Source: Betaproteobacteria bacterium
Lineage (GTDB): Bacteria; Pseudomonadota; Gammaproteobacteria; Burkholderiales; Ga0077523
Reading direction: 5' to 3'
DNA length: 64,000 nt
Assembly: GCA_025350245.1 (NCBI GenBank)
Contig: JANXYG010000052.1
Span: forward strand, 12,265 to 76,264
In this document: positions 12,572-37,104 of the stretch, one piece after another
Position numbering within the stretch: position 1 is the stretch's first letter
How the letters are laid out: every line of letters starts with the position of its first letter
Notes under the pieces: model-generated
Seen by the model: the letters and a program-made list of their open reading frames with translations, nothing else
What the model was told of the DNA's origin: nothing
Database searches by the model: none
Position numbers and translations under genes: made by a program

Positions 12572-12665
12572 AATGAAACGTCCACCCCCAGGCTCCGCTG
12601 CGCTACGCCTTCCTCCTCGAGGGGGCCGGTGTCCTCGGGGGGGCCGGTTGTGGGCACCGTGGGAG
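12569..12665 (+). repeat. Structured intergenic repeat, family A (diverged 3' half)
   Basis: The same 12-mer TGAAATGAAACG contains the gmaS stop. It is followed by TCCACCCCCAGGCTCCGCTGCGCTACGCCTTCCTCCTCGAGGGGGCCGGTGTCCTCGGGGGGGCCGGTTGTGGGCACCG. Hairpin 2 stem is CGGTG/CACCG. Confidence 0.85.
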
Positions 12666-12672
12666 ACATGAC

Positions 12673-14276: not shown

Positions 14277-14310
14277 TCCGTACGCGCCGACCCAACCCCT
14301 GAGTGACCAC

Positions 14311-15681
14311 ATGAACAAGCCATTCGATCCCGTTTCCGCCAGCGCTGCGCACCGCATCCAGCGCGAGGAGTCCGCCGGCTACGATCGCCGGGTCATCGAC
14401 TACATCCATCACGCGGCCGCGAGCGGCCTGTACGAGATCCGCGGTCTAGGTGCGAAGCGTCATCTGCCGAGCTTCGACGACCTGGTGTTCCTGGCCGGCT
14501 CCGCCTCGCGGTATCCGCTCGAGGGGTATCGCGAACGATGCACGACCAAGACGGTGCTGGGCACGCGCTTCGCGAAGAAGCCGGTCGAGCTCGATATCCC
14601 GATCACCTTTGCCGGCATGAGCTTCGGGTCGCTCTCTGCGCGGGTGAAGCAGGCGCTCGGTCGTGCGGCGACGGCGCTGGGCACGTCGACGACCACCGGG
14701 GATGGCGGCATGACCCAGGAAGAACGCGAGTCGTCGAAGACGCTGGTCTACCAATGCCTGCCGTCGCGCTACGGCTTCAATCCGGACGACGTGCGCCGCG
14801 CCGACGCCATCGAGCTGGTGATCGGGCAGGGCGCCAAGCCTGGCGGCGGCGGGATGTTGCTGGGGCAGAAGGTCAATCCGCGCGTGGCCAAGATGCGCAC
14901 CCTACCGGAAGGCATCGACCAGCGCTCGGCCTGTCGGCATCCGGACTGGACCGGCCCCGACGACCTCGTGATCAAGCTCAACGAACTGCGCGAGATCACC
15001 GACTGGCAGATACCGATCTACGTGAAGATAGGCGCGACCCGTGTCTACCACGACGTGAAGCTCGCCGTGCACGCGGGTGCGGATGTGGTCGTGGTCGACG
15101 GCATGCAGGGTGGAACCGCTGCGACCCAGACCGTGTTCATCGAGAACGTGGGCATCCCGACGCTCGCGGCATTGCGCCAGGCGGTCGAAGCGCTCGAGGA
15201 AATGGACATGCGTGGCAAGGTGCAACTGGTGATCTCCGGCGGTATCCGTACCGGCGCCGACGTTGCCAAGGCGCTGGCGATGGGCGCGGATGCTGTCTCG
15301 GTCGGCCAGGGCGCGCTCATCGCGATGGGTTGCAACCACGACAGCTGGTTCGGCGATGGCGTGGCGCACTCGGCTGAAAGCGATTATGCGGTGCTCGGCA
15401 CCGCGCCCGGCTTCTGCCATCACTGCCATACCGGGCGGTGTCCGGTCGGCATCACCACCCAGGATGCGCTGCTGGAACAGCGTCTCGAGCCCGCAGTTGC
15501 CGCCAAGCGCCTGAAGAATTACTTCAAGACCATGAACATGGAGCTGACCACCATCGCCCGGGCGTGCGGCAAGTCGAACGTGCACAACCTGGAACGCGAG
15601 GATCTCGTCGCGCTGACGATCGAGGCGGCGGCGATGGCCAACTTGCCGCTTGCCGGCACGAACTGGATTCCAGGAGCCTGA
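14311..15681 (+). CDS. mgsC: N-methylglutamate synthase subunit C (FMN-dependent glutamate-synthase domain)
   Basis: 456 aa from the internal Met (MNKPFDP) of ORF 14053..15681. Motifs GQGAKPGGGG and DGMQGGTAA, and Cys-rich CHHCHTGRCPVGITTQD, are typical of GltB FMN-domain homologs. Confidence 0.85.
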   Translation: MNKPFDPVSASAAHRIQREESAGYDRRVIDYIHHAAASGLYEIRGLGAKRHLPSFDDLVFLAGSASRYPLEGYRERCTTKTVLGTRFAKKPVELDIPITFAGMSFGSLSARVKQALGRAATALGTSTTTGDGGMTQEERESSKTLVYQCLPSRYGFNPDDVRRADAIELVIGQGAKPGGGGMLLGQKVNPRVAKMRTLPEGIDQRSACRHPDWTGPDDLVIKLNELREITDWQIPIYVKIGATRVYHDVKLAVHAGADVVVVDGMQGGTAATQTVFIENVGIPTLAALRQAVEALEEMDMRGKVQLVISGGIRTGADVAKALAMGADAVSVGQGALIAMGCNHDSWFGDGVAHSAESDYAVLGTAPGFCHHCHTGRCPVGITTQDALLEQRLEPAVAAKRLKNYFKTMNMELTTIARACGKSNVHNLEREDLVALTIEAAAMANLPLAGTNWIPGA

Positions 15682-15712: not shown

Positions 15713-16306
15713 ATGTCCGCGAACGAAGCGCAGCTCTACCGATTTCTCGGTACCCGGGTCCGCGAACTCAGGCTCAAGAACGATTTGACCCTGGGCGAGA
15801 CCGCGACTCAGGCGGGCATCAGCCAGGGCATGTTGTCGAAGATCGAGAACGGGCAGGTGGCGATGAGCCTCGATACGCTGGGCAAGGTGGGGCGGGCGCT
15901 CGGCGTGCCGGTGGGAGATCTGTTCCGCGATTTCGATCTGCCGGAGGGCGGTGCGAAGTTCGTCAAGAATGGTGAGGGCATCGAGGTCGTGCGCCGGGGC
16001 ACCCGCAGCGGCCACACCTATCACCTGCTGTCGTACGATAAGGGTCCGCGCCGCAGTTTCGAGCCGTTCCTGGTGACGATCAACGATGCCTCGGAGGTTT
16101 TTCCGAGTTTCGAGCACCCTGGTACCGAGTTCATCTATGTGCTCAAGGGACGCATCGAGTATCGCCATGGCCAGCAGACGTACCTGCTGGAGCGTGGCGA
16201 TGTCCTGACCTTTCGCGGTGATGTGCCCCACGGCCCGGAGAAGCTGCTCGAAACGCCCATCGAGTTGCTGTCGGTCATCGTGTACGGCACGAGTGACTCA
16301 CCGTAG
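15713..16306 (+). CDS. XRE-family HTH plus cupin-domain transcriptional regulator (paralog 1)
   Basis: 197 aa from the internal Met of ORF 15650..16306. The HTH is LTLGETATQAGISQGMLSKIENG; the C-terminal cupin is HPGTEFIYVLKGRIEYRHG..GDVPHG. Architecture resembles PuuR-type amine regulators. Confidence 0.8.
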   Translation: MSANEAQLYRFLGTRVRELRLKNDLTLGETATQAGISQGMLSKIENGQVAMSLDTLGKVGRALGVPVGDLFRDFDLPEGGAKFVKNGEGIEVVRRGTRSGHTYHLLSYDKGPRRSFEPFLVTINDASEVFPSFEHPGTEFIYVLKGRIEYRHGQQTYLLERGDVLTFRGDVPHGPEKLLETPIELLSVIVYGTSDSP

Positions 16307-16334: not shown

Positions 16335-16982
16335 TTAGGACGCCCTGGCCGGGTCCGCGACGCGCCTGCCGAGGAACCCGCCGAGACGCGCCTGGGCCGC
16401 CTGCTTCTCCTCCAGCGACATCTGTTCCTGCACCGGCTCCAGGGCGTTCAGGGCGTGCCCCGCCCCGTGATTCGCGGCGAGCGTCAGCCAGACGAAGGCC
16501 TCGATCCGGTTCTTGGGAACGTCATCGTTGCCGCAGTAGAGATAGCCGAGTCGCGCCTGCGATGGCGTGTGCCCCAGTTCTGCCGCCCGCCGGTACCACG
16601 ATAGCGCGATGTCGACGTTGCGGTCGACGCCCTGCCCCTTCATGTGAAAGACCGCAAGATTGAACATCGCATGCGTGTCGCCCTGTTCGGCGGCCTTCGC
16701 CAGCCACTTGGCGGCGTCCGCAAAACTCTGGTCCACACCCTTCCCGAGCCCGTACATCGCGCCGACGTTGTTCTGCGCGAGCCGGTTGCCGGCCTGGGCC
16801 GAGCGCAGGTACCACTCGAACGCCTTCGCGTCGGAGACCTCCACGCCGAGACCGCCTTCGTAGAGTGTCCCGATCCACGCCTGGCTGTCTGCGTCGCCGT
16901 TCTCGGCCAGCGGCAGCCAGTGCTCCAGCGCCGCCGGGTAGTTGCCCTGGCGATAGTTCTCGAGTGCATGGTCCATGCTCAT
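16335..16982 (-). CDS. Sel1-like (SLR/TPR-type) repeat protein, no signal peptide
   Basis: 215 aa from the internal Met (MSMDHALENY) of ORF 16335..17198. At least four A-x-x-W-(Y/L)-x-x-A-A-x-x-G repeats, e.g. AFEWYLRSAQAGN, AAKWLAKAAEQGD, ALSWYRRAAELGH. GAGG RBS. Confidence 0.75.
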   Translation of the reverse strand: MSMDHALENYRQGNYPAALEHWLPLAENGDADSQAWIGTLYEGGLGVEVSDAKAFEWYLRSAQAGNRLAQNNVGAMYGLGKGVDQSFADAAKWLAKAAEQGDTHAMFNLAVFHMKGQGVDRNVDIALSWYRRAAELGHTPSQARLGYLYCGNDDVPKNRIEAFVWLTLAANHGAGHALNALEPVQEQMSLEEKQAAQARLGGFLGRRVADPARAS

Positions 16983-17016
16983 GTGTTTGCCTCGCTTGAG
17001 TTGGTCTTGTGGTGAA

Positions 17017-17035
17017 CCGGTGCCAATGGCACCGG
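17017..17035. repeat. Perfect 19-nt palindrome (CCGGTGCCAATGGCACCGG) in the intercistronic gap between the RHO-like and Sel1 genes
   Basis: Read directly: 9-bp arms around a single central base. Confidence 0.7.
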
Positions 17036-17065
17036 AGGATTCGATCGCCTGTGCGGCCCGCGACG

Positions 17066-18334
17066 TCAACCCGCGCCCGCGTTGACGCTGGCGTTGAGCG
17101 AGCGACCGGGATTCGTGTAGAGCGGTCGCGACACATACTCGTGGCGCGCGAGCAGTCGCTCGACGACAAATCGCTGGAGATCGAGAGCCATCTCGCACGT
17201 TTCGAAGGTCGCGGGTTGGTCGTCAATCCGCTGCGACAGGAACGGTGACGGATTGTCGTTGCCGGCGATGTCGCGCTGGGCGCGTGCGGCCCGACCGGAC
17301 CACAGGTCGATCGCCGCGACCGCGGCGCTCATGGTTTCGTCGGGTACCCCGGTCGCCTCGGCGCCGGCGCCATGATCGCGTTGAAAGACGTCGACCTGGA
17401 GCAGGGTTTCGGTCAATCCGATCGGCTGCACGATCACCGTCGACATCCAGCGGTCATGCAGCTGCAGCAGCAGGTTGGGGTAGATCCAGATGACGTGGGA
17501 GCCCGGTCCCCGGTCGAGCGCCGGAAGCCGGGCATCGTGCAGTTCCAGGGGACGGGTCTGTTCGTCGGCCGCATCGAAGGAGATCCCCCAGAAGGCCTCC
17601 GTCGGGGGCGCCGATGCAGCGTGCGATGCAGCCGTGTCCGATGGCGGCATGGTCGTGGCGCTGACCGGTTCGAGCACGCTGCGCGGGAACAGCTTCCAGT
17701 TGAAATCGCCGACGCGCTGGAAGCGGCCGACGCGATTTATGCCGGACGCGAGATAGTGGCGCAGGGGCGAGGCCAGGCTTCCCAGCTGGTCTCCGAGATC
17801 CTGTCGGTCGACATCGAGATTGGCGAATGCCAGCGTGCCCAGCGCGGCAATCTGCACCGGGATCAGCTTGTCGGGATTGTTGCCGAGGTACATGTACATC
17901 TCCGGCGTCTCGACACCGCCCGGTTCGGCGTGCATCACATCGCGGTCGCGCGAGTGTCCGCAGGAGGTGAAGGAGCAGGTCGTCTTCCTGCCGGTCTGGC
18001 ACTGGCGCGGCACGAAGCGGCACCCGCCGTGCTGCGCGAAATTGAAATGACCCTCAAGGCCCAGGTCTGCGCGGCGGCGAAGGTGAACACCATGGCTTCC
18101 GATCGTGAACGGCAGGATGTCGCCGACATCGGGGATCCGGTCCTGGTGTCCCATGCAGACCCAGGCGCGCGTCCAGATCTTCTCGTCCTCGAGTTCGGCG
18201 AACGCCTTCGAGCGATAGGCAAGTGGCGGGAGCGTGGTGCCGAGGCCGAACGGCTTCAGCGCTGAATCGTAGAAAGCACGACCGGTCAGATCGTGTCCCT
18301 GGTCGTAGTAACCAAGCAAGGGTTGGAGTGCCAT
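17066..18334 (-). CDS. Rieske-oxygenase alpha-subunit-like protein with non-canonical or degenerate metal-ligand motifs
   Basis: 422 aa from the Met of ORF 17066..18361. The N-terminal region AFAELEDEKIWTRAWVCMGHQDRIPDVGDILPFTIGSHGVHLRRR..GHFN has a RHO-alpha-like layout, with a C-terminal FNWKL motif. In place of CxH..CxxH it has FAQHGGCRFVPRQCQTGRKTTCSFTSCGHS, and no DxxHxxxxH follows NWK. Confidence 0.6.
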   Translation of the reverse strand: MALQPLLGYYDQGHDLTGRAFYDSALKPFGLGTTLPPLAYRSKAFAELEDEKIWTRAWVCMGHQDRIPDVGDILPFTIGSHGVHLRRRADLGLEGHFNFAQHGGCRFVPRQCQTGRKTTCSFTSCGHSRDRDVMHAEPGGVETPEMYMYLGNNPDKLIPVQIAALGTLAFANLDVDRQDLGDQLGSLASPLRHYLASGINRVGRFQRVGDFNWKLFPRSVLEPVSATTMPPSDTAASHAASAPPTEAFWGISFDAADEQTRPLELHDARLPALDRGPGSHVIWIYPNLLLQLHDRWMSTVIVQPIGLTETLLQVDVFQRDHGAGAEATGVPDETMSAAVAAIDLWSGRAARAQRDIAGNDNPSPFLSQRIDDQPATFETCEMALDLQRFVVERLLARHEYVSRPLYTNPGRSLNASVNAGAG

Positions 18335-18436
18335 GCGTTCCTCGCTGTCGGTAGGACACACAGGCGCGAGCGCGCCAGTGTGTCTTGCTTCCGGATTCCT
18401 TCGTCGGCCCGGGTGGTGCCCGGACCGGCGTCGGGC

Positions 18437-20848
18437 TCAACCGCCCCGGGAACTCGAGACCTTGTTGCCGGGCGGATCGTAGTCGGCGCGCCCGCGATGC
18501 TTGAAGGCATCCTGGGGTGGCGGCGGCAACGGGCCGTCCTTCATGAAGCGATCGAGCACGTTCTTGACCAGGCGAGAGATATTGTTCTTCGCCGGGTCAC
18601 CGTTGTTCCAGGGAAGCGATCCGCAGAATGCAATGGAACTGAACGCGAAGCAGCCGCCGCCATTCGGGGTCTCGTGATAGGCGATGTCCGAGCGCACGCG
18701 AGGATGCTGCGTTCCGTCCAGGCCTTGCTGGTTGAAGCCGAAATCCTCCATGACGAGCAGGTAGCCTTCGGTGTGCCTGCCAGCCGACGTTGCCACCACC
18801 AGGGTATGCGGAGGAGACCCGAGCATGGTGTCGACGATATCCAGTTCGGTGCCGGCTGCGCCGCCACCCACGAGGCCGAAGTTACCCAGCTTCTCGTCGT
18901 AACCGATACCTTCGAATGCCCACGCGACGCGCGCGTCGTTGCTCTCCGGTGTCCGGCTGTAGTAGGTCGAGATGTCGAAACCTTCGGAAGACATGCCCGT
19001 GCCCGCGACGGTGTGCAGGTATCGGCCACGATAGCGCCACATCCCGCCGAGTTCGCCGGTCGATTGGTGGTAGTACTCGCCGGGGTCGGCGCGCCAGGTG
19101 CGGATGCCGGACTCGCAGCGACGCATCTCGGTGATCACGCCGCGGCCCAGATGGTCGTATCCAGGGTGATAGGAATGCACCCAGTACCAGCCGTCGGCGC
19201 CCATGTACATGAACCGGCCGCCTTGCTGCGTGTAGTTGTGCAAGGCATCGAGCTGCGGCCCGGTGTTGTGCTCCGGGTGGGAGCCGCTGATCACGACGTT
19301 GTAGCCCTTGATCCGGGCGAGGCCGTCGTAGTTCACGTCCTCGTCGGTGATCACGTCGTAGTTGTAGCCGTTGACCTCCAGCCAGTAGATCAGGTGCAGG
19401 TCCGCCGGATACTGCCACGGCGACTGGCTCAGGAAGTGGTCGTATTTGGGGCGCACGCTCAGGATCGGGCGCAGACGCGACGACAGGCAAAGGCCGCTGC
19501 CGTCGGTGTGCGTGTCGTAGATCGATCCGCCGTACTCACGGTGCTCCGACAGGAACATGTTCTGGTGCTGCATGATCGGCACGCGGTACACCAGCAACTC
19601 GGCGCCGCCCGCATTGTTGGCGAGGTGCTCGTTCGCGTAGGCCATGTAGCTGATCGTGGGCATCATGACGGCGATCTTCGCCGTCTCCTGCCCGACATGC
19701 GGCACCACGAAGAACGGAACATAGTCCTCGTCGCCTTCGTTGGTGGTGAGCTTCGCGGCATAGCACGCGCTCTTCAGGTCCTTGGGGACCTCCCATTCGA
19801 AATCCACATCCCAGCGGGCATCGTCCACGTCGTCGTCATGGAAGTGGATCGCGCCGTACTGGCCGGCCGCATGCTTCCAGTCGAATTCATGGCCGGACCA
19901 GTTGTAGCCGGTCATCGCGCGCGTCGGGCAGTTGACGATGCTGGCGTGATGCAGGTACGGCCCCTTGTCCGCGGCGACGATCGTGTTGATGCCGACGCTG
20001 AAATCCCACGCGGCGACGATGCACTCGGAGAGCTTCGGGGTGGGGCCGCTGCCACGGCGCTCGTCCAGGCCGGTCTGTGCGCCGAGCTTCATGGTCTCGA
20101 TCTCGAGCCGGGACAGCGCCCGGTTGCAGACGCGGGGGCTGTCGATCTTGCCGTTGTAGTGACCGGAGATCACGATTCCCTTCGGCACCGAGGACGCGGC
20201 CTTCACGCCGCCGGCACTGTCACCGACAAAGCCGGCGATGACGCACGGGATGCCGCTGTTCCTGACCTTCTCCTTGATGGTGGTCGTCACCGGCGCAATC
20301 TCGGGATCGAGCGCATAGGTGATCTGGGGCTCGTGATACAGAATCGCCTCGCCGGTCTTCGCATCGAAGGTGGCCGCGAGAAAATGCCAGGCGTGATCGC
20401 GCAGCGGCGCGCTGGTGGCCAGCTTGACGCCATTCACGCGCAGCTCGGCACAGCCGGCCTCGTTGATAAACAGCCCGTAGCCGCCTTCGGCCGCGGACCA
20501 CTTCGTGACCAGTCCCTGCGGGCCGTGCTTCCAGTACTTCGGGTGCGTCTTCGGCGTCGTCGGCCAGATCCAGCACTGGAGCGTGAAGCTGTCGAGCTTG
20601 AAACGGATGTTGTCGAGCACATAGCCATACGAGCCGCTGTGAACGACCTGCTTGCGCCCGGTGTATTCGGCGTTCACCGAGACGCTGATCGGCTTCTCGA
20701 TGAAGCCCGGCCCGCGCGGATTGGTGTCACCGTTGATCATCTTGACGATCTCGGCCTTGTACTTCTTCGGGCCGTCGCAGTTCACGAAGAACTTGATCTT
20801 GTCCCCTGGATGGACGCCGAACTTGTCGGCATAACCTGTGAGTCGCAT
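18437..20848 (-). CDS. dmfA2: N,N-dimethylformamidase large (beta) subunit family protein
   Basis: 803 aa from the internal Met (MRLTGYADKFGVHPGDKIKFFV) of ORF 18437..20962, with an AAGGAGA RBS. It has an N-terminal beta-sandwich, a LamG-like segment (LQCWIWP..HAWHFLAATFDAKTGEAILY) and a C-terminal region (AVMMPTISYMAYANEH.., VISGSHPEH). I recall this layout from DMFase large subunits. Not confirmed by search. Confidence 0.7.
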   Translation of the reverse strand: MRLTGYADKFGVHPGDKIKFFVNCDGPKKYKAEIVKMINGDTNPRGPGFIEKPISVSVNAEYTGRKQVVHSGSYGYVLDNIRFKLDSFTLQCWIWPTTPKTHPKYWKHGPQGLVTKWSAAEGGYGLFINEAGCAELRVNGVKLATSAPLRDHAWHFLAATFDAKTGEAILYHEPQITYALDPEIAPVTTTIKEKVRNSGIPCVIAGFVGDSAGGVKAASSVPKGIVISGHYNGKIDSPRVCNRALSRLEIETMKLGAQTGLDERRGSGPTPKLSECIVAAWDFSVGINTIVAADKGPYLHHASIVNCPTRAMTGYNWSGHEFDWKHAAGQYGAIHFHDDDVDDARWDVDFEWEVPKDLKSACYAAKLTTNEGDEDYVPFFVVPHVGQETAKIAVMMPTISYMAYANEHLANNAGGAELLVYRVPIMQHQNMFLSEHREYGGSIYDTHTDGSGLCLSSRLRPILSVRPKYDHFLSQSPWQYPADLHLIYWLEVNGYNYDVITDEDVNYDGLARIKGYNVVISGSHPEHNTGPQLDALHNYTQQGGRFMYMGADGWYWVHSYHPGYDHLGRGVITEMRRCESGIRTWRADPGEYYHQSTGELGGMWRYRGRYLHTVAGTGMSSEGFDISTYYSRTPESNDARVAWAFEGIGYDEKLGNFGLVGGGAAGTELDIVDTMLGSPPHTLVVATSAGRHTEGYLLVMEDFGFNQQGLDGTQHPRVRSDIAYHETPNGGGCFAFSSIAFCGSLPWNNGDPAKNNISRLVKNVLDRFMKDGPLPPPPQDAFKHRGRADYDPPGNKVSSSRGG

Positions 20849-20897
20849 GTTGTGGTCTCCTTCTGTTTGCGATGTGGTCGCGAGTGGGATCGGTCGA

Positions 20898-21338
20898 TCA
20901 GGTGGCGGTCCAGTTGTCGGAGCGACGCTTCCAGCCTTCGTGGAAGTGCTCCGGCATGCCATCGAATTCGGCCATCTCCTCCAGTCGCATCAGGAAGATC
21001 GCGTGTTGCACCTCCTGCTCGTCGGAGAACACGCGTTCGTCCACCAGTTCCGGCGGCACGCCGCGGATGCCGGACAGCCTGCCGATGCGCCATTCCTTCT
21101 CGAGCTTGGTGCAGATCACCACCAGCTTGTTCTTGGCGGGCAGGGTCCGCATGCGCAGCAGGACGCGATTCAGGAGCAGATCCTCGTGGATGCCGCCCGT
21201 GACCACGGTCGTGTCGCCCGGTGTCTCGCACATCAGCACGGAGCAACCCGCAACACCCTTCATGGACTTCATGCACGCCTCGTGTTCTGCCACGAGCCGG
21301 TCGTACTCCGGTGTGCCCTTCCTTGGAATCCGAATCAT
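20898..21338 (-). CDS. dmfA1: Putative N,N-dimethylformamidase small (alpha) subunit
   Basis: 146 aa (MIRIPRKGTPEYDRL..) with a strong RBS (GAGGAGACTCGAATG), 49 nt upstream of the large subunit. Assigned only by size and synteny with described dmfA1-dmfA2 pairs. Confidence 0.5.
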   Translation of the reverse strand: MIRIPRKGTPEYDRLVAEHEACMKSMKGVAGCSVLMCETPGDTTVVTGGIHEDLLLNRVLLRMRTLPAKNKLVVICTKLEKEWRIGRLSGIRGVPPELVDERVFSDEQEVQHAIFLMRLEEMAEFDGMPEHFHEGWKRRSDNWTAT

Positions 21339-21478
21339 TCGAGTCTCCTCATGAGATGGGTAAGCCACGTTTGAACATCGATGCAGGGCCGTCGTGGTAT
21401 CGGTGCGCCCGCTGATCCAGCTGCGCGACGGCGCGTCGACTGGTGTCTCTCTCCTGCATGTCGTACCTGGCCACTGGT

Positions 21479-22174
21479 CTAGATGGTCAGGTGCTGCTCG
21501 ATCAGGTCGTCACTCAGATCCTCCACCGGGCCCTTGGCCGCGATGGCCCCCTTGTCCATGATCACGAAGCGGGTCGCGGCGTTCTTGGCGAACTCCACGT
21601 TCTGTTCGATCAGGATCACGGTGATGCCGAGCTGGCGGTTCAGGCTGATGACGAGTTGCTGGATCTGCTCGACGATGTTGGGCTGGATTCCCTCGGTGGG
21701 CTCGTCGAGGATCAGGAGGCTCGGATCCGTGGCCAGCGCGCGCGCGATGGCGAGTTGCTGGGCCTGGCCGCCCGACAGGATGCCGGCGCTCTTGTCGAGG
21801 TTGTCGGCGAGATAGGGAAACAGATCGAGGACCTTCGCGGGCACTTCGGCATTGCCATCCTTGCGCGCGAAGGTGCCCAGCAGGATGTTCTCCCGGACCG
21901 AGAATTTCGGCAGGATCCCGCGGCCCTGGGGGATGTAGCCGATGCCCGCCGCCGCACGCCGATGGGTGGGCAACTGGGCAACTTCCTGACCGTTGATCCG
22001 GATGGATCCGGTGACGCGCGTGGTCAGGCCCAGGATGGTTCGTGCGAGGGTGGTTTTGCCGACCCCGTTGCGACCGATCACCGACAGCAGGTCGCCTTTC
22101 GCGAGATCGAGCGACAAGCCCTGGATGATCGGGGTCGACCCGTAATAGGAGGTGACGTCGCGCAGCTCAAGCAT
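21479..22174 (-). CDS. ABC transporter ATP-binding protein (UrtE/LivF-like; urea/short-chain-amide importer family)
   Basis: 231 aa from the Met of ORF 21479..22198. Walker A GRNGVGKTT, signature LSGGQAQQL, Walker B LLILDEPTEG. 8-nt overlap with the upstream ATPase gene. Confidence 0.85.
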   Translation of the reverse strand: MLELRDVTSYYGSTPIIQGLSLDLAKGDLLSVIGRNGVGKTTLARTILGLTTRVTGSIRINGQEVAQLPTHRRAAAGIGYIPQGRGILPKFSVRENILLGTFARKDGNAEVPAKVLDLFPYLADNLDKSAGILSGGQAQQLAIARALATDPSLLILDEPTEGIQPNIVEQIQQLVISLNRQLGITVILIEQNVEFAKNAATRFVIMDKGAIAAKGPVEDLSDDLIEQHLTI

Positions 22175-22919
22175 GGGAGGCCTTGCCTTCCTTGCCAAGA
22201 TAGACGCGCCGGACTTCGCTGTCGTTCTCGATCTCCGCGATGGTCCCCTCGGCGAGAAACCGGCCCATGTGCATCACGGTTACGCGCTCGGCGATCTGGC
22301 GCACGAACCCCATGTCGTGCTCGACGACCAGCAGCGTGTGCGAGCCCTTCAGGCTGTTGAAGATCTCGCCGGTCTTGTAGGTCTCCTGCGCGGTCATGCC
22401 GGCCGTGGGCTCGTCCATCAGCAGGACCTGGGGGTTCTGGATCAGCACCATGCCGATCTCAAGCCACTGCGTCTCGCCGTGGGAGAGCTCCTCGGCCTTG
22501 TCCCGCAGGCGCCGCGCCAGACCGACCTGTGTCGCAACCTGCCGCACGCGCGTCTGCGCGGCGCCGTCGCGCAGGACGAACATGTTGCGGATCGGACTCG
22601 TGGTCCGGTTGTGGGCGACCGTGAGGTTTTGCTGCACGGTCAGGCCCTTGAACACCGCCGGCACCTGGAACTTGCGACCCAGACCGTGACGCACCCGCAG
22701 ATGCTCGGGCCAGTGGGTGATGACAGTGTCGTTGAGCGAGATGATTCCCGAGGTTGCCTTCTGCCGTCCGGTGATGAGGTCGAGCGTCGTGGTCTTGCCG
22801 GCGCCGTTGGGGCCAAGGAGGCAGCGCAGTTCACCTTGATGGACCTTCAGGTCGAAGGTGTCGACCACTTTCAACTGGTCGTATGCCTTGGTCAGGCCCT
22901 TGACTTCGAGCAGCGCCAT
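22167..22919 (-). CDS. ABC transporter ATP-binding protein (UrtD/LivG-like)
   Basis: 250 aa. Walker A GPNGAGKTT, signature-like LSHGETQWL, Walker B LLMDEPTAG. Confidence 0.85.
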   Translation of the reverse strand: MALLEVKGLTKAYDQLKVVDTFDLKVHQGELRCLLGPNGAGKTTTLDLITGRQKATSGIISLNDTVITHWPEHLRVRHGLGRKFQVPAVFKGLTVQQNLTVAHNRTTSPIRNMFVLRDGAAQTRVRQVATQVGLARRLRDKAEELSHGETQWLEIGMVLIQNPQVLLMDEPTAGMTAQETYKTGEIFNSLKGSHTLLVVEHDMGFVRQIAERVTVMHMGRFLAEGTIAEIENDSEVRRVYLGKEGKASHA

Positions 22920-24043
22920 CAGACCTGACTCCGCGGTGCGGCAGAGGCCGCGACTGGTGGCGTCCCGGGCTCGGCGTCGGGTCCGGGGGCCTTCGAACGT
23001 CCGATGCGGGCAAGCGCCATTTCGAGGAGACCCGCGAGGCCGTTCGGCAGGAAGCGCACGATGACGATGAACAGGCCCCCGAGCACCAGCAGGAAGCCGT
23101 ACAGCAGTTCGTCACCGAGATAGCTCTGGATGCCATTGACGAAGAACGCGCCGATGATCGCCCCCAGCAGGGACATGCGTCCGCCGACCGCCGCCCAGAT
23201 CACCATACTCACGCTGAACTGGACCTCGAGCGCGGTCGGGGAAACGTACTGCACGATCATCACCCACAGGACGCCGGCGACCGCGGCGATGAATCCGGAG
23301 ATCGTGAAGATCGTGACCTGGTATCCCGCCACGCTGTAGCCGAGGAAGCGGGCGCGTTCCGGATCGTCGCGGATCGCCTGCACCACCAAGCCGAACTTGG
23401 TGCTGAGCAGGAGCTTCATCCCGAGCGTCAGCGCGGCGAGGAACGCCAGGACGATCCAGTACGCCTCGTGGCTGTACGGATCGATGGCGTGACCGGCGAT
23501 GTTCAGGGGGGCCGGCGGCGAGATGCCGTTGAAGCCGGCGGTGTAGGGCTGCATGTCGAACGCCATGCTGTACCAGGCCGAGAGCATCGCCAGGGTGACG
23601 ATCGCCACGAACACGCCCACCAGGCGCGCCTGGAACATCATGGCGCCGAACACGCCGAAGAAGATGGTCGGCACGATCAAGGCCAGGGCGATACCCGTCG
23701 GGGTGTGCCAGAAGGGGATCCACAGCGCCGGCAGTTCGGTCAGCTCATTGGTCAGCATGAAGCTCGGGATCGGCGCGTTGACCGGATCCTGCGACTGCAT
23801 CTGCATGGTCATGCCCATGCCGTAGGCGGCGAGGCCGAACGCGATGCCCTGACCGAGGCTCAGGATCCCGCCGAAGCCCCAGACCACGCTGACCGACAGC
23901 GCCAGCATGCCGAGCACGATGAACCGGGAGAACAGATTGGTCGTGAAGGCGTTCTCGATGAACATCGGCAGCACGGCCAGGACCGCGAAGAACACGAAGT
24001 AGACGATCCACTGCAGGGTGCGGTTGTCGTAGAGGGAATTCAT
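22919..24043 (-). CDS. ABC transporter permease (UrtC/LivM-like)
   Basis: 374 aa from the internal Met (MNSLYDNRTLQWIVYFVFF) of ORF 22919..24154; polytopic and hydrophobic. Start uncertain: there is no clear RBS, and the track start is a TTG at 24154. Confidence 0.75.
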   Translation of the reverse strand: MNSLYDNRTLQWIVYFVFFAVLAVLPMFIENAFTTNLFSRFIVLGMLALSVSVVWGFGGILSLGQGIAFGLAAYGMGMTMQMQSQDPVNAPIPSFMLTNELTELPALWIPFWHTPTGIALALIVPTIFFGVFGAMMFQARLVGVFVAIVTLAMLSAWYSMAFDMQPYTAGFNGISPPAPLNIAGHAIDPYSHEAYWIVLAFLAALTLGMKLLLSTKFGLVVQAIRDDPERARFLGYSVAGYQVTIFTISGFIAAVAGVLWVMIVQYVSPTALEVQFSVSMVIWAAVGGRMSLLGAIIGAFFVNGIQSYLGDELLYGFLLVLGGLFIVIVRFLPNGLAGLLEMALARIGRSKAPGPDAEPGTPPVAASAAPRSQV

Positions 24044-24128
24044 CGTTGCGTGTGGTCGGGCATGGTGTCGGCTGCAAGGCAGCGAGCTGCGCAGACTGGA
24101 AACCGCGGGAACCGGGTGGTCACGGGCA

Positions 24129-25034
24129 TCACCTGCGACCCAGCGATTCGGCAAACAGGCCCTGGGGCCTGAATCGAAGGAACACGACCACCAGCAGGAA
24201 GAGCCAGAACTTGGCGAAGGTACCGTTGGTGAAGTAGGCGAACACCGAATAGATTTCGCCCAGCCCGACTGCGCTGACGAGACTGCCGATCAGCGAACCG
24301 ACGCCGCCGACCACGACGACCAGGAATGCCTCGACGATGTAGCCGCTGCCCATGTCGGGGAAGACGTTCTTGATGGCACCGAACATCGCGCCTGCCAGAC
24401 CGGCGAGACCGGCACCGTAGGCGAAGGTGAGCGTGTAGACCCGGCCTGTATCGATGCCGTGGGCGGAGGCGATCTCCTTGTTCTGCATGACGGCGCGCAC
24501 CATCAGGCCCACCCGCGTGCGATGCATGAGCCACCATGTGCCCGCGAAGGTTGCCAGCGTGACCGCGATGACGAAGAGCCTGAACAGGGAAAGTGAGAAC
24601 ACCCAGAACTGCACGGAGGAGTTCAGGAATTCCGGGCTGGCGATGTTCTTGGGTTCAGGTCCGAGTATCAGCCGGACCGTCTGGATCAGCACCAGCGACA
24701 ATCCCCAGGTTGCCAGCAACGTGTCGAGCGGGCGACGATAGAGATAGCGGACGAGGCCGAGTTCGATCACGGCGCCGATGGCCGCGACGATGACGAATGC
24801 GCATGGAATGCACGCGAGGAACGGGACGCCGAGGTAGCGCTCGAGCACGAACGCGGAGTAGGCGCCGAGCATGACGAATTCGCCGTGCGCCATGTTGATC
24901 ACGCCCATGGTGCCGTAGACGATCGCGAGGCCGAGCGCGGCGATCAACCAGATGCTGGCGACGCTGAGTCCGATCAGCAGCGCGTTCATGAACGGACCGA
25001 ACGCGAAGGCTGTCCAGAAGTGGTCAACGCTCAT
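24129..25034 (-). CDS. ABC transporter permease (UrtB/LivH-like)
   Basis: 301 aa polytopic membrane protein (GVINMAHGEFVMLGAY is typical of the LivH family). Confidence 0.85.
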   Translation of the reverse strand: MSVDHFWTAFAFGPFMNALLIGLSVASIWLIAALGLAIVYGTMGVINMAHGEFVMLGAYSAFVLERYLGVPFLACIPCAFVIVAAIGAVIELGLVRYLYRRPLDTLLATWGLSLVLIQTVRLILGPEPKNIASPEFLNSSVQFWVFSLSLFRLFVIAVTLATFAGTWWLMHRTRVGLMVRAVMQNKEIASAHGIDTGRVYTLTFAYGAGLAGLAGAMFGAIKNVFPDMGSGYIVEAFLVVVVGGVGSLIGSLVSAVGLGEIYSVFAYFTNGTFAKFWLFLLVVVFLRFRPQGLFAESLGRR

Positions 25035-25129
25035 CGAGCAGCTCCGTGCTGATGGAGTCGACCGGTGGCAATCGGTGGCAGAGGCGTGGATCCGGATTCA
25101 ATTGCGGTGGCCGCGGTGGTCCGACAGAG

Positions 25130-25196
25130 AAAAAAAGGCGTCACGTGAAGAGGAGAGGTCTTCGTGCAGGGCAAAGGATCCTGCGCGTGACGCCTT
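25130..25196 (-). terminator. Intra-operon hairpin plus U-tract after the binding-protein gene (putative partial terminator or attenuator)
   Basis: Sense strand: AAGGCGTCACG..(inner GCAGG/CCTGC hairpin)..CGTGACGCCTT followed by TTTTTTT. Starts 9 nt after the SBP stop. Confidence 0.45.
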
Positions 25197-25204
25197 GCCG
25201 TGCA

Positions 25205-26530
25205 CTACAGGACGTTCTTCAGGACCTTGCCGTCCTTGGTGTGAAGCCCGTCGAACTTGCAGACGCCGCGCTCGGGGTAGATCACGAACGGATCGGGAGC
25301 GATGTGGGCGTCGGCCGCCTTGACGATCTTGAACTGGCCGTTGGCCTGGCACTGACCGATCTTGGGTTTCATGTAGAGGTGGCAGGTCTCGTCGAAATAG
25401 ACCAGGCCTTCGGGCGACACGTCGTCCTCGATGCGGATGCCGGGGGTGACGTCGCGGATCATGCGCGGCGTGATGGCCTCGACGCTGCCGGCCTTGGCCA
25501 GTGCCTTTTCGAACGCGTACTTGAAGGCCCAGACCGACAGGTAGGTCTCTTCCATGTTGTAGTGGGTCACGCCGCCCTTGCCGTACTTGCTGGCGAGGTA
25601 TTCCTCGACGAACTTCTTGTTGGTCGGCGTATCCAGGGTCTGGAAGTACGGTGCCGACAGGAAGTGACCGGCACCGAACTCGGCACCCATGGCGCGGGTT
25701 TCGATTTCACCGGTGGTCAGCGCGGCGATCGGCATCTTGTCGACCTTGAAGCCTTCCTGCTTGAACTGCTTGTGCAGGGCGATATCCGAGTCGCCGACCA
25801 CGGTGGAGAAGATGAAGTCGGGCTTGGTCTGGCGGATCTTGTTGAAGATGGACGAGAAGTCGGAGCCGCCGAGCTCGACGTACTCTTCTCCGAGCAGCTC
25901 GCCGCCGACCTTCTCCAGCCAGACCTTCGCATTCTTGTTCGATTCCTTCGGCCAGATGTAGTTGGAGCCGACGAAGTAGGTCTTCTTGCCGAAGCTCTTG
26001 ACCATGAACGGGATCAGGTCCTGCGAGTGCTGGTTCGCCAGCGGACCGGTGTTGACGATGTTCTGCGTGCACTCGCGACCTTCGTAGCAGGTCGGGTAGT
26101 ACAGCAGGTGGTCACGTGCCATCACGACCGGCGCCATCGCGCGGCGGCTCGCCGACGTGTAGCCGCCGAAGGTGGCGATCACGCGATCCTTCAGGATCAG
26201 CTGGCTGATCTTCTCGGAGAACACCTTGATGTCCGACTTGGCGTCGATGATCACCGGCTCGACCTGCATGCCGGCGATGCCGCCCGCCTTGTTGATCTTG
26301 TCGATCGCGAACTGAACAACCTGGTTCGAGTCGGTCTCGACCACGGCAAGGGCGCCGGTGAGGGAGAACAGCACGCCGACCTTGATCTTGTCGCCTTTCT
26401 TCACCCAGGGCGTCGACTGCGCCCCCGCGTCCTTCACGAAGAAGTACGGGAACCCTCCTAGTGATCCTGCGCCAGCGGTAGTGGCGATGGCGGTGCTGGT
26501 TTTGAGAAAGGTTCTCCGTTTTCCGTCCAT
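25205..26530 (-). CDS. Periplasmic substrate-binding protein of a urea/short-chain-amide ABC transporter (UrtA/FmdD-like), Tat-type signal
   Basis: 441 aa from the internal Met of ORF 25205..26581. MDGKRRTFLKTSTAIATTAGAG has a twin-Arg-like signal. Type-I PBP (Leu/Ile/Val-binding fold) pattern KIKVGVLFSLTGALA. AGGAGAG RBS. Confidence 0.8.
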   Translation of the reverse strand: MDGKRRTFLKTSTAIATTAGAGSLGGFPYFFVKDAGAQSTPWVKKGDKIKVGVLFSLTGALAVVETDSNQVVQFAIDKINKAGGIAGMQVEPVIIDAKSDIKVFSEKISQLILKDRVIATFGGYTSASRRAMAPVVMARDHLLYYPTCYEGRECTQNIVNTGPLANQHSQDLIPFMVKSFGKKTYFVGSNYIWPKESNKNAKVWLEKVGGELLGEEYVELGGSDFSSIFNKIRQTKPDFIFSTVVGDSDIALHKQFKQEGFKVDKMPIAALTTGEIETRAMGAEFGAGHFLSAPYFQTLDTPTNKKFVEEYLASKYGKGGVTHYNMEETYLSVWAFKYAFEKALAKAGSVEAITPRMIRDVTPGIRIEDDVSPEGLVYFDETCHLYMKPKIGQCQANGQFKIVKAADAHIAPDPFVIYPERGVCKFDGLHTKDGKVLKNVL

Positions 26531-26865
26531 GGTGGTGTCTCTCCTGAATAGGGTGTGGGAAGCGTGTTTCTTGCAGTGCACGCTTGTTTAACTAACGGCA
26601 ACTCGCATACCAACCACTGCCAGGAGGTAGAAACGAATAAATACAAAGACATAAGTTCCTATCTGCCCCCATCCCTTGCACTTGAACGGTGCGCGGCTCT
26701 ATTTTATGCACAAAAGTTTCCCCATAGGCAATATCTGTGTCCATAAAGAGCATCATGATGTTCGTGTAGAGAAACTTACGACCGCAGTGCTGCGTGACGT
26801 GACCTGGTTTCGGGTCTCGCCCGTTGCCAGCATTGCGTCGTGAGCCGTCGATCCAGGAGCGGGAA
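26531..26865. promoter_or_regulatory. AT-rich divergent control region between the amide-ABC/DMFase operon (-) and the hypothetical gene/regulator (+)
   Basis: The GC drop is visible by eye (e.g. aaacgaataaatacaaagacataagttcct). Contains a perfect 10-bp palindrome CATCATGATG (26751-26760), CGCAGCACTGCG (26783-26794), and a 5'-UTR inverted repeat AAGCGTG..CACGCTT (26560-26585). No promoter hexamers assigned with confidence. Confidence 0.5.
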
Positions 26866-27201
26866 ATGGTCTTCAGCGTGCAACAGATCAAGTACGAGTT
26901 CCTCGGCTACATCAAGGGCCTGGGTGGGCGGTTCGAGGACTGGTACGTGGGCGTCACGGACGATCCGGAGCAGGCGTTGTTTGCGCTCCACGGGATCGAG
27001 CGAAGTACCGATCCCTGGATCTACAAGCCGGCCCTGACGGCAAGGGCGAGTGCAACGGTGCTGAAGTACTTCAGGGAGATATTGAAGACCGATGGTGCTG
27101 ACCCGGGCCTCGTGCCCGACGAGGCGACCATCGTGTTTCTCTTCCGGAAGGGCGCCGGGACCATGCCGCCCATGTCGCCATCGGCCCGGCCAGTCGAGTG
27201 A
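26866..27201 (+). CDS. Hypothetical small protein (111 aa)
   Basis: Internal Met (MVFSVQQIKYEFLGYIKGLGG) of ORF 26824..27201, preceded by GGAGCGGGAA. WYVGVTDDPEQALFALHG faintly resembles a GIY-YIG 'YVGxT..H' core. Weak; no function assigned. Confidence 0.45.
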   Translation: MVFSVQQIKYEFLGYIKGLGGRFEDWYVGVTDDPEQALFALHGIERSTDPWIYKPALTARASATVLKYFREILKTDGADPGLVPDEATIVFLFRKGAGTMPPMSPSARPVE

Positions 27202-27469: not shown

Positions 27470-28150
27470 ATGACTGAGAATCCATCCCGCTCCGGCACCG
27501 CGAACAGTGCCGGGTCACGAGAGGCACCGAAAGTCGACACTCCCTCGGTCCCGCCTACTCGGGAAGGCAGCACCGGCTTGGAGCGCCATATCGGCCACGT
27601 GCTCAAGTCGCTGCGGCTGCAGCAGAAACTCACCATCGCCGACGTCGCGGCAGAAGCCCGCATCAGCCGGGGCATGCTCTCGAAGATCGAGAACGGCCAG
27701 TCCTCCGCCAGTCTGGAGACGCTCGCCAAGCTGTGCGACGTGCTGGGCGTTTCGCTCGGCCACCTGTTCAGGAACTACGACCGACCCGATGGCGGTGCCC
27801 AGCTGGTAAAGGACGATGCCGGCATGGAGGTCGTACGCCGGGGCACCAAGCGCGGCCACACCTATCAATTGCTCGCCTACGACAAGGGGCCGCGCAAGAG
27901 TTTCGAGCCGTTCCTCATCTCGATGGATGACAGCAGCGAGATCTTCCAGAGCTTCGAGCACCCCGGCACGGAGTTCATCTACATGCTCACCGGCAGGATC
28001 GACTATCGCCATGGGCAGCACACCTATGTGCTCGAACCGGGCGATGCGCTCACGTTCCGTGGCGAGGTCCCACACGGACCAGAGAAGCTCCTGGAAGTCC
28101 CGATCAGGTTCCTGTCCGTGATCGTCTACAGCGAGCCGGGCGACGGCTGA
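27470..28150 (+). CDS. XRE-family HTH plus cupin-domain transcriptional regulator (paralog 2, with an about 35 aa N-terminal extension)
   Basis: 226 aa. The HTH is LTIADVAAEARISRGMLSKIENG; the cupin is HPGTEFIYMLTGRIDYRHG..GEVPHGPEKLLEVPI. Collinear with the 15713..16306 product. Confidence 0.8.
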   Translation: MTENPSRSGTANSAGSREAPKVDTPSVPPTREGSTGLERHIGHVLKSLRLQQKLTIADVAAEARISRGMLSKIENGQSSASLETLAKLCDVLGVSLGHLFRNYDRPDGGAQLVKDDAGMEVVRRGTKRGHTYQLLAYDKGPRKSFEPFLISMDDSSEIFQSFEHPGTEFIYMLTGRIDYRHGQHTYVLEPGDALTFRGEVPHGPEKLLEVPIRFLSVIVYSEPGDG

Positions 28151-28317: not shown

Positions 28318-29832
28318 CTACATGTGATACGCGGTTTCGCCGTGCTCGGTGACATCGAGACCTTCGCGTTCCTTCTCTTCGGTCACCCGCAGGCCGACCA
28401 CCAGATCGGTGATCTTGTACGCGATGAACGCGACCACGCCCGACCAGATCAGCGTGGTGCCGACTCCCCAGGCCTGGGACACAAGCTGCGTTGCCATCGA
28501 GAAGTCCGGATCGTACTTGTTCGCGACATAGTCGTACACGCCGGTGCCGCCGAGTGACGGCGAGCAAAACACGCCAGTGAGCATGGCGCCCAGGATGCCG
28601 CCGGTGCAGTGCACACCGAAGACGTCGAGCGAGTCGTCGTAGCCGAACATCCGCTTGAGCGACGTGACCGACCAGAGGCAGACCAGGCCAGCGAGGATCC
28701 CGATCACGATCGAGCCCATCGGGCCGACGTAACCGCAGGCCGGCGTGATGGCGACCAGACCGGCAACCGCACCGGAAGCGATGCCGAGCATCGACGGCTT
28801 GCCCTTCAGGCCCCACTCGGCAAACATCCACGCCAGCGCCGCCGCAGCGGTAGCGAGCATGGTGTTGACGAACACCATCGCGGCGAAGCCCGTGGACTCG
28901 AGGTTGGAACCGACGTTGAAGCCGAACCAGCCCACCCACAGCAGGGACGCGCCGATCATGGTCATGGTCAGCGAGTGCGGCGGCATCGGCTCCTTGCCGA
29001 AGCCGATGCGCTTGCCGATCAGGAGACAGCCCACCAGGCCCGCGATACCGGCATTGATGTGCACCACCGTTCCGCCCGCGAAGTCGAGCGCACCCTTCTG
29101 CGAGAGGAAGCCGGCAGTGGCGATTGCCGCTTTGGCAGCCTTGGCATCGGTGAAGGCATCCGGACCCGCCCAGTACCACACCATGTGCGCGATCGGCAGG
29201 TAGGAGAACGTGAACCACAGCACCATGAACATCAGCACTGCCGAAAACTTCACGCGCTCGGCAAAAGCGCCGATGATCAGCGCTGGCGTGATCGCGGCAA
29301 AGGTCAGCTGGAACGCGATGTAGATGTACTCCGGGATCACGACGCCCTTGCTGAAGGTCGCGACATTGGAGTCAGGTGTGACACCAGCCAGGAACGCCCG
29401 CGAGAATCCGCCGAAGAACGCGTTGCCTTCCGTGAATGCCAATGAATAGCCGTAGATCGCCCACAGGATCGCGAGCAGCGAGAAGGTGGCGAATACCTGC
29501 ATCAGCACCGACAGCATATTCTTGGTGCGCACCATGCCGCCATAGAACAGCGCCAGCCCGGGAATCGTCATCAGGATGACCAGCACCGTGGCGACGATCA
29601 TCCATGCGGTGTCACCCTTGTTGGGCACGGGCGCCGGTGCGGCTGCAGGCGCTGCGGCCGCGGGAGCTGCCGCAGCCGGCGCAGCATCCGCGGGTATCGC
29701 CGCGTCGGCGGCGGGAGCGGTAGCTGGAGCTGTGACCGCAGCTCCAGCTGTCGGCTTGTCGTCCGCGAACCCCGGCGTGCCGAAACCGAAGGCCGCCAGC
29801 AGCGCGAACAAAGTCAGGATTTTCTTCATCAA
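28318..29832 (-). CDS. amtB: Ammonium transporter
   Basis: 504 aa. Signal peptide plus an Ala/Pro-rich linker, then the Amt core (DFAGGTVVHINAGIAGL, GVHCTGGILG). Directly downstream of glnK. Confidence 0.95.
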   Translation of the reverse strand: MMKKILTLFALLAAFGFGTPGFADDKPTAGAAVTAPATAPAADAAIPADAAPAAAAPAAAAPAAAPAPVPNKGDTAWMIVATVLVILMTIPGLALFYGGMVRTKNMLSVLMQVFATFSLLAILWAIYGYSLAFTEGNAFFGGFSRAFLAGVTPDSNVATFSKGVVIPEYIYIAFQLTFAAITPALIIGAFAERVKFSAVLMFMVLWFTFSYLPIAHMVWYWAGPDAFTDAKAAKAAIATAGFLSQKGALDFAGGTVVHINAGIAGLVGCLLIGKRIGFGKEPMPPHSLTMTMIGASLLWVGWFGFNVGSNLESTGFAAMVFVNTMLATAAAALAWMFAEWGLKGKPSMLGIASGAVAGLVAITPACGYVGPMGSIVIGILAGLVCLWSVTSLKRMFGYDDSLDVFGVHCTGGILGAMLTGVFCSPSLGGTGVYDYVANKYDPDFSMATQLVSQAWGVGTTLIWSGVVAFIAYKITDLVVGLRVTEEKEREGLDVTEHGETAYHM

Positions 29833-29843: not shown

Positions 29844-30254
<411 letters not shown>

Positions 30255-31224: not shown

Positions 31225-31240
31225 TGCAATTTAAGTGCCA
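31225..31240 (-). promoter_or_regulatory. Sigma54 (-24/-12) promoter for porin-glnK-amtB
   Basis: The sense strand reads TGGCACTTAAATTGCA, an exact fit to TGGCAC-N5-TTGCA, about 68 nt upstream of the porin ATG. The nitrogen-regulated context fits. Confidence 0.8.

Positions 31241-33354: not shown

Positions 33355-37104
<3,750 letters not shown>

Follow-up and report, generated by a model that had tools for sequence, protein, structure and literature searches.

The described enzymes closest to those considered here are the N,N-dimethylformamidases (DMFases; DmfA1A2, EC 3.5.1.56) of Paracoccus sp. DMF (PDB 6LVB), of pAMI2 and of Methylobacterium sp. DM1, which are built from a small subunit of about 15 kDa and a large subunit of 85-90 kDa. 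In agreement with what a sequence-only reading of the present DNA had stated, the loci on pAMI2 and in Methylobacterium sp. DM1 consist only of a LuxR-type regulator gene, dmfA1 and dmfA2; validated loci of this kind are plasmid-borne, flanked by insertion sequences (IS) and controlled by the LuxR-type DmfR. Partial counterparts are also found in FmdDEF of Methylophilus methylotrophus and AmiC of Pseudomonas aeruginosa (PDB 1PEA), which are partnered with a formamidase or an aliphatic amidase, in the urea importer UrtABCDE, and in the alpha3-type Rieske oxygenases (the group of CntA, Stc2, GbcA and choline monooxygenase). Here we analyze a stretch of 64,000 nucleotides from a betaproteobacterium (contig JANXYG010000052.1; hereafter the window) in which a DMFase-family hydrolase is encoded together with an ABC importer and three further proteins. 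We lean, if modestly, towards reading this locus as one copy of a widely conserved module of ten genes that would take up a small, uncharged, short-chain amide with high affinity and hydrolyse it in the cytoplasm. In the full-text literature, the only description of the cluster that we found is a one-sentence remark on pAMI5 of Paracoccus aminophilus.

Unlike the validated DmfA1A2 loci, the window cluster is chromosomal and conserved, carries no LuxR-type DmfR, and adds a transporter and three extra proteins to the hydrolase. It shares a Peripla_BP_5 binding protein with the FmdDEF and AmiC systems and, as in FmdDEF, this protein is coupled to Liv/Urt-type permeases and ATPases, whereas the enzymatic partner here belongs to the DMFase family. 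The ten genes are the following:

25205..26530, minus strand: substrate-binding protein (SBP), 441 aa, Tat signal; Peripla_BP_5, E=1e-111
24129..25034, minus strand: UrtB-like ABC permease, 301 aa; TIGR03409, 339 bits against a cut-off of 250
22919..24043, minus strand: UrtC-like ABC permease, 374 aa (start codon from the public-contig gene call); TIGR03408, 304 bits against a cut-off of 296
22167..22919, minus strand: UrtD-like ABC ATPase, 250 aa; TIGR03411, 302.6 bits against a cut-off of 304.1
21479..22174, minus strand: UrtE-like ABC ATPase, 231 aa; TIGR03410, 285.0 bits against a cut-off of 285.8
20898..21338, minus strand: DMFase-family small (alpha) subunit, 146 aa; PF26354 DMF_alpha (precomputed Pfam), PDB 6LVB_B
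18437..20848, minus strand: DMFase-family large (beta) subunit, predicted iron amidohydrolase, 803 aa; PF20254 DMFA2_C, E=5e-90, PDB 6LVB_A
17066..18334, minus strand: Rieske-oxygenase-like (RHO-like) protein, RHOL, 422 aa; Rieske-oxygenase alpha-subunit fold, Cys4(+His) motif
16335..16982, minus strand: Sel1-repeat protein, 215 aa; PF08238, four repeats, E=1e-35
26866..27201, plus strand: protein of about 100 aa, orf125L (MVFSVQQIKYEFLGY...), 111 aa; divergent from the SBP gene, tenth conserved gene

A conserved ten-gene unit

Gene calls on a public contig of 100% identity from a metagenome-assembled genome (MAG; GCA_043726285.1) agree with all nine minus-strand open reading frames (ORFs) that the sequence-only reading had reported. 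The short gaps and overlaps it had described between consecutive genes are also borne out, ranging from -8 (an 8-nt overlap) to 170 nt, with no convincing terminator found inside the operon. The architecture it had proposed, an amide-type ABC importer joined to a DMFase-like alpha/beta pair and two accessory genes, stands as well. Its nine genes were right but its extent was not, given that the conserved unit has ten genes and includes the one at 26866-27201, and the notion of a fusion local to this genome was not borne out, because the unit is conserved across many proteobacterial genomes.

The RHO-like protein was used as the query over one genome per GTDB species, which gave 177 relatives and 80 retrieved loci. 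These loci come from Alpha-, Beta- and Gammaproteobacteria, including many freshwater and marine MAGs, and the carriers comprise Hyphomicrobium, Methylobacterium, Hansschlegelia, Ancylobacter, Mesorhizobium, Bosea, Rhodopseudomonas and Stutzerimonas tarimensis; among the cultured ones, methylotrophs are overrepresented. On one strand, the genes run SBP, UrtB, UrtC, UrtD, UrtE, small subunit, large subunit, RHO-like gene; the Sel1 and ~100-aa genes come last, and which of these two is first varies. This order is kept in all 80 loci wherever the flank is long enough. The RHO-like gene always lies directly 3' of the large-subunit gene and is adjoined by the Sel1 gene in 59 loci, while the ORFs of about 100 aa found beside either of these accessory genes elsewhere are homologues of the 111-aa ORF of the window. 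In most other genomes this tenth gene lies inside the operon, next to the Sel1 gene, whereas here it diverges from the SBP gene. The recurrence of this gene order in so many genomes argues for a ten-gene unit rather than a local fusion. Between the window and the other loci of the three classes, identity amounts to 74-90% in the large subunit and to only 33-48% in the RHO-like protein. In the reverse direction, large-subunit homologues of at least 75% identity (Methylorubrum extorquens, Bradyrhizobium canariense and a metagenome; n=3) led to the same ten genes, and the M. extorquens cluster also covers strain CM4 (ACK82371.1) and M. aminovorans.

Among annotated plasmids and chromids, the chromid pAMI5 of P. 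aminophilus JCM 7686 gave the best match at the DNA level. There, a row of genes encodes the small subunit, the large subunit, a 'biphenyl 2,3-dioxygenase', a 108-aa hypothetical protein homologous to the 111-aa ORF of the window (26866-27201), and an AmiS/UreI channel. This locus (JCM7686_pAMI5p063-064) is a true orthologue, whose large and small subunits are 73% and 69% identical to those of the window, and it likewise has the RHO-like gene and the ~100-aa gene after the hydrolase genes. It differs from the window in having the AmiS/UreI channel instead of the ABC importer, no Sel1 gene and a RHO-like protein shortened to 326 aa, and it adjoins a cytoplasmic AmiC-like sensor and a two-component system that the window does not share. 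Moreover, an exhaustive profile search yielded two divergent RHO-like proteins, each encoded directly after DMF_alpha and DMFA2_C genes, and in one of these loci (L089) an AmiS/UreI channel again replaces the ABC system.

Several variations on the unit were also observed. In Methylobacterium (L071, L075, L076, L081) it is split between the transporter genes and the small-subunit gene by an insertion that carries a hybrid histidine kinase, a LuxR-type response regulator and a 427-aa gene (at about 2.4-6.6 kb in L075). In two divergent lineages (L088, 4668-5366; L089, 8409-9287), the gene after the RHO-like gene encodes a non-Sel1 protein of 232-292 aa with no Pfam family, and the two proteins share the motif GIPPWxWxPR...DDPANV...GFFIVGPG. 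Besides, an uncultured Thiotrichales MAG (L034, 14289-21036) has, shortly downstream of the main cluster, a second and divergent DMFA2-like gene (773 aa) that is accompanied by a small ORF and a separate set of Liv/Urt-type ABC transporter genes, which suggests that enzymes of the DMFase family may have paired with amide-type ABC importers more than once.

The hydrolase and the binding protein

Both subunits expected of a DMFase were recovered: the 803-aa protein matches PF20254 in our searches, and the 146-aa protein carries PF26354 in the precomputed annotation and had no match in our local Pfam copy. The large subunit aligns over its full length with chain A of 6LVB (E=3e-158, 41% identity), and the 2-Tyr-1-Glu iron site that the sequence-only reading had looked to is intact, with Tyr399, Tyr440 and Glu521 kept in the window protein and in 76/76 clade sequences. 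The same is true of His519 and Glu657 (76/76), and of Phe693 except for one Tyr, so these residues are common to DmfA1A2 and the window enzyme, as are the DMFA2_C and DMF_alpha families. The small subunit aligns with 6LVB_B in its C-terminal part only (E=2e-4); it shares 27-28% identity with validated DmfA1 and 62-75% with the small subunits of its clade, a variant with an extra N-terminal segment in comparison with DmfA1. In the small subunit (20898-21338; also L086, 2314-2739, and L087, 7543-7941) about 25 inserted residues, two of them Cys, form a conserved stretch (MKGVAGCSVLMCETPGDTT...), which is missing from validated DmfA1, where a longer N-terminal helix region is found instead.

The large subunit of the window is 40-42% identical to the validated DMFases (pAMI2, DM1, 6LVB), which are 84% identical among themselves, and the median identity within its own clade is 79%. 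The position of Asn547, which is Asn in the validated pAMI2 and Methylobacterium DM1 enzymes, is Asp in 75/76 clade members, and the N547A mutant of the Paracoccus DMFase is inactive (PMC7686228). On the basis of this identity level and of the Asp at position 547, we regard the window enzyme as a predicted iron amidohydrolase of the DMFase family that forms a separate orthologous clade and is not a DMFase orthologue. The family also takes in enzymes acting on other amides, such as N-acetyl-(R)-beta-phenylalanine acylase.

These data bear directly on the possibility that the locus is a genuine N,N-dimethylformamide (DMF) catabolic operon, in which the importer would take up DMF, the enzyme would release dimethylamine and formate, and the accessory proteins would be specific to DMF. 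Strong homology to the solved DMFase, the preserved iron site, the frequency of methylotrophs among the carriers and the adjoining methylamine pathway agree with this view, but we consider it unlikely in light of the low identity to a tight group of validated enzymes and the replacement of Asn547. It also conflicts with what is known of P. aminophilus, since curing a strain of pAMI2 leaves it unable to use DMF and the pAMI5 orthologue was 'not found to be linked to DMF utilization' (PMC4543880). Furthermore, a chromosomal and highly conserved cluster that is common in open-water MAGs contrasts with the plasmid-borne, IS-flanked and LuxR-regulated validated loci, and no dimethylamine-oxidising genes were found in the window. 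The label of a DMF regulon given by the sequence-only reading is not sustained by the identity values, the Asp at position 547 and the pAMI5 record, while its caveat that the substrate could be another small N-substituted amide still holds.

The Tat-like signal previously noticed on the SBP is supported by the twin-arginine motif MDGKRRTFLK. Among the transporter components, the UrtB-like and UrtC-like permeases pass their equivalog cut-offs and the UrtD-like and UrtE-like ATPases fall just below theirs, whereas the SBP reaches only 338.9 bits against the UrtA model, with a cut-off of 492.75. The closest solved relatives of the SBP are 8TG1 (a PDB entry for which our literature search found no paper), three UrtA structures and the acetamide sensor AmiC, and the AmiC structure 1PEA matches the SBP with E=1e-48. 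Over 13 pocket positions the SBP has Y, S, Y, T, C, E, Y, W, V, V, L, T and T, of which 11 are the same as in AmiC; the comparison was made with AmiC, not with the FmdD sequence, and the two differences are Cys for AmiC Pro107 and Trp for AmiC Tyr152. All 13 positions are invariant or nearly so in 55 orthologues. In some loci, SBP paralogues are placed beside histidine kinases and are likely sensors.

Could the locus instead serve a nickel-independent use of urea or substituted ureas such as methylurea, with Urt-type import and an iron amidohydrolase replacing urease? The scores of the permeases and ATPases at or around the Urt thresholds, the UrtA proteins that rank as the nearest solved relatives of the SBP after 8TG1, and a regulation that looks nitrogen-dependent are compatible with this proposal, which we nevertheless rank below the DMF operon, as improbable. 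Nine residues line the urea pocket of Prochlorococcus UrtA, and mutating W120, S122, Q144, Y190 or N246 reduces or abolishes binding (PMC10392092). At these five positions the window SBP has Y, S, C, Y and V, and the replacement of W120, Q144 and N246, three residues that urea binding needs, by Y, C and V holds in 55/55 SBP orthologues. Together with the distance of the SBP from the UrtA cut-off and the inactivity of the Paracoccus DMFase on urea (PMC7686228), this argues against urea. The pocket is predicted to be of the AmiC/FmdD-like small-amide type and not of the urea type, and a small uncharged amide is further suggested by the replacement of the importer with an AmiS/UreI channel in two lineages and by the SBP paralogues linked to histidine kinases.

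The oxygenase-like protein and its partners

The 422-aa protein gave weak matches to alpha subunits of Rieske oxygenases (E of about 1e-10) and no match to the Pfam Rieske domain (PF00355). Its AlphaFold2 (AF2) model (pLDDT 84, pTM 0.88) shows the two-domain fold (Rieske and SRPBCC) shared with the alpha3-type Rieske oxygenases, which are also its nearest sequence outgroup, and the top Foldseek matches were TPADO, CntA and Stc2 (E=1e-17 to 1e-15). However, alignment to the biphenyl dioxygenase BphA indicates that the CxH and CxxH ligands of the Rieske cluster became AQH and CSFT in the RHO-like protein, with A100 and T123 invariant or nearly so among 76 family members. In the loops that formerly held the cluster, the same members have a new motif, AQHGGC-x6-C-x7-C-x4-C, in which H102, C105, C112, C120 and C125 are invariant or nearly so; Gln replaces His102 in one divergent member, which keeps the four Cys. 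This pattern points to a putative metal site of the Cys4 type.

Conservation of the RHO-like protein is centred on the N-terminal domain, and the C-terminal domain keeps NWK, PNL, QP and few other positions. Across the 76 sequences, that domain has no conserved 2-His-1-carboxylate triad: no conserved His-x4-His or Asp follows NWK, and D174, E378 and H398 are only partly conserved. The nearest canonical sequences (E of about 1e-30), in contrast, retain both CRHRG...CPYH and E-x-Y-H-x4-H. The label of a Rieske oxygenase is not sustained: the fold is present, but both cofactor sites are gone. Because the Rieske ligands and the catalytic iron triad are missing and no reductase or ferredoxin gene was found in any retrieved cluster, the protein is predicted not to be an oxygenase.

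An active oxygenase working beside the hydrolase, for instance as the N-demethylase of the oxidative 'pathway II' of DMF degradation, is accordingly a very remote prospect. The Rieske-oxygenase alpha fold, the presence of the N-demethylating CntA and Stc2 among the nearest structural relatives and the fact that the pathway II enzymes have not yet been identified in the literature would favor it, yet it would have to operate with both cofactor sites lost, a C-terminal domain of minimal conservation and no electron-transfer partner, while its nearest canonical relatives keep both sites.

Regarding the other two accessory proteins, no signal peptide was found in the Sel1 protein or its orthologues, and this Sel1-repeat protein, a putative adaptor, is predicted to be cytoplasmic. 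The ~100-aa protein has no Pfam family and a confident AF2 model (pLDDT 92), for which a fold search against the PDB returned no meaningful match, the best being RidA/YjgF-like (E=0.5, TM 0.3). We also considered it as a duplicated small subunit, which was ruled out by an hhalign probability of 0.1%. The strict linkage of the three accessory proteins, all predicted to be cytoplasmic, to the hydrolase clade argues for a functional partnership, and they may act non-catalytically, either by joining the iron enzyme as additional subunits or by assisting its assembly, metal loading or redox maintenance. That they are mere neighbours with no functional link to the hydrolase or the transporter is scarcely credible, even though the recombinant Paracoccus DMFase is active without accessory proteins (PMC7686228), in view of an order and orientation that are the same across three classes despite the divergence of the RHO-like protein and that survive transporter replacement and the relocation of the tenth gene.

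Regulation, surroundings and proposed role

The features around the ten genes that bear on regulation and nitrogen metabolism are the following:

26598..26612, minus strand: sigma-54-type -24/-12 element TGGTATGCGAGTTGC, 67 nt upstream of the SBP start codon
26677..26693, minus strand: dyad GCAC-N7-GTGC, about 80 nt upstream of the -24 element
15713..16306, plus strand: XRE-HTH and cupin regulator (HTH_3, Cupin_2), convergent with the Sel1 gene
27470..28150, plus strand: second XRE-HTH and cupin regulator (HTH_3, Cupin_2), a paralogue of the first with 65% identity
30255-31337: Gcw_chp (porin-like) gene, followed by glnK (29844-30182) and amtB (28318-29832)

The SBP gene and the divergent ~100-aa gene are separated by 335 nt. 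No riboswitch was found upstream of the operon in Rfam at E values up to 1, and a sigma-70 promoter scan returned no sites. A strict sigma-54 consensus with two mismatches missed the operon element, which was recovered by aligning related intergenic regions: in four related loci, the GG and TTGC positions of TGGTATGCGAGTTGC and the columns of the GCAC-N7-GTGC dyad are invariant. One of these four loci is without the transporter, and there the sigma-54-type element precedes the small-subunit gene. The dyad resembles the NtrC consensus and may be a candidate site for an NtrC-type enhancer-binding protein. Two sigma-54-type sites were observed in the 64-kb window against 0.46 expected, the other being a perfect consensus, TGGCACTTAAATTGCA (31226-31240, minus strand), before the Gcw_chp-glnK-amtB operon. 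The Gcw_chp ORF as listed, starting at 31337, would contain that promoter, so its real start is probably further downstream. The conserved element and dyad, along with the perfect site at the nearby glnK-amtB genes, make nitrogen control of the operon through a sigma-54 promoter likely. In many alpha- and gammaproteobacterial loci, a LuxR-type response regulator is found upstream in place of the XRE-cupin regulators.

As previously proposed, the operon lies directly beside an N-methylglutamate (NMG) methylamine pathway (5866-15681; sox-like mgd genes, the type III glutamine synthetase (GS)-like gmaS and mgsABC), from which it is separated by just one XRE-cupin gene (15713..16306). On the opposite flank are the Gcw_chp porin gene, glnK and amtB, and the rest of the window holds chromosomal housekeeping genes (including ptsI, gshAB, metH, glyQS, lnt and miaB), on account of which a plasmid or mobile-element origin was rejected for this window. 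NMG or gmaS genes also adjoin the cluster in beta relatives, in Bradyrhizobium/Rhodopseudomonas and in a Rhodospirillaceae MAG, and the B. canariense island resembles the window in its succession of an mgsC-like gene, a GS-like gene, an XRE-cupin gene, the cluster and another XRE-cupin gene. NMG adjacency was considered as a universal feature and ruled out, since no such genes occur within 10 kb in most marine alphaproteobacterial loci.

Some neighboring genes deserve mention in their own right. In several gamma- and alphaproteobacterial MAGs (L017, L047, L052, L056), genes with glutamate-synthase-like domains lie downstream of the cluster, +6 to +8 kb from the RHO-like gene, and their products, which have 33% identity to mgsA and 40% to mgsC, could belong to an NMG synthase or to an ordinary glutamate synthase. 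Within the window, an amidase-signature gene (39650-41059, plus strand; PF01425, E=4e-105) is located 13 kb from the operon, between the gene of a DUF2214 membrane protein and an unannotated 302-aa ORF. This ORF (41111-42019, plus strand) and another of 632 aa (37058-38956, plus strand) have a coding-like GC content at third codon positions (GC3) and no Pfam family at E<=1e-5.

From the gene content, synteny, residues and folds observed, we infer a pathway in which the Tat-exported SBP of AmiC/FmdD type would capture the amide and the UrtBCDE-like ABC transporter would import it. Cleavage by the two-subunit Tyr-Tyr-Glu iron hydrolase would then yield an acid (formate) together with an amine (methylamine or ammonia), and the adjacent NMG pathway would assimilate the amine in this organism, with expression driven by nitrogen limitation through the sigma-54 promoter. 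The substrate is most probably N-methylated. The Paracoccus DMFase has a kcat/Km of 6167 for N-methylformamide against 256 for DMF (PMC7686228), and this preference, the enrichment of methylotrophs and the lack of dimethylamine genes in the window make an N-monomethyl amide the most economical guess, with N-methylformamide, by analogy, as the leading one.

Several observations weigh against this uptake and hydrolysis reading or parts of it. The choice of N-methylformamide extrapolates from an enzyme of 41% identity and from neighbouring genes, and acetamide-type ligands, on which the Paracoccus enzyme has no hydrolytic activity, could fit the AmiC-like pocket just as well. The hydrolase chemistry may differ, considering that the change from Asn547 to Asp hits a residue essential for DMFase activity. 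A methylamine product may not be general, judging from the marine alphaproteobacterial loci without NMG genes nearby, and only four related loci supply the sequence patterns behind the sigma-54 and NtrC assignments. In addition, part of the Cys motif is lost in one divergent RHO-like protein (P0243), and a maturation role for the accessory proteins would be without precedent, as the recombinant canonical DMFase needs no partners.

We also suggest, more tentatively and as a possibility that we hold short of an even chance, that the clade represents the natural, ancestral form of the DMFase family, devoted in many soil and aquatic Proteobacteria to the nitrogen-regulated harvest of natural N-methylated formamides or amides as sources of nitrogen and C1 units. 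In this form, the hydrolase would need a hitherto unknown set of three partner proteins with a 'pseudo-Rieske-oxygenase' at its core, whose Cys4(His) site, rebuilt from the old cluster loops, might serve the hydrolase as a structural, iron-delivery or redox-maintenance factor.

With its RHO-like protein, the cluster offers a clear example of the scaffold of an oxygenase apparently put to another use after loss of the cofactors. These results also have consequences for annotation, given that genome surveys count all K03418 matches as DMF degraders; neither K03418 nor PF20254 matches should be annotated in this way by default. The natural substrate and the roles of the accessory proteins are amenable to testing in genetically tractable hosts, among them Methylorubrum extorquens CM4 and Bradyrhizobium. 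DMFase is commonly seen as an enzyme that acts on a man-made solvent, DMF not being known to occur in nature according to the DMFase structure paper, and its natural origin has been an open question. The finding of a sister clade widespread in Proteobacteria bears on this question, and the cluster probably shows the natural role of the DMFase family. With DmfA-like proteins detected in ocean metaproteomes, it may represent an overlooked route of organic-nitrogen and C1 cycling.

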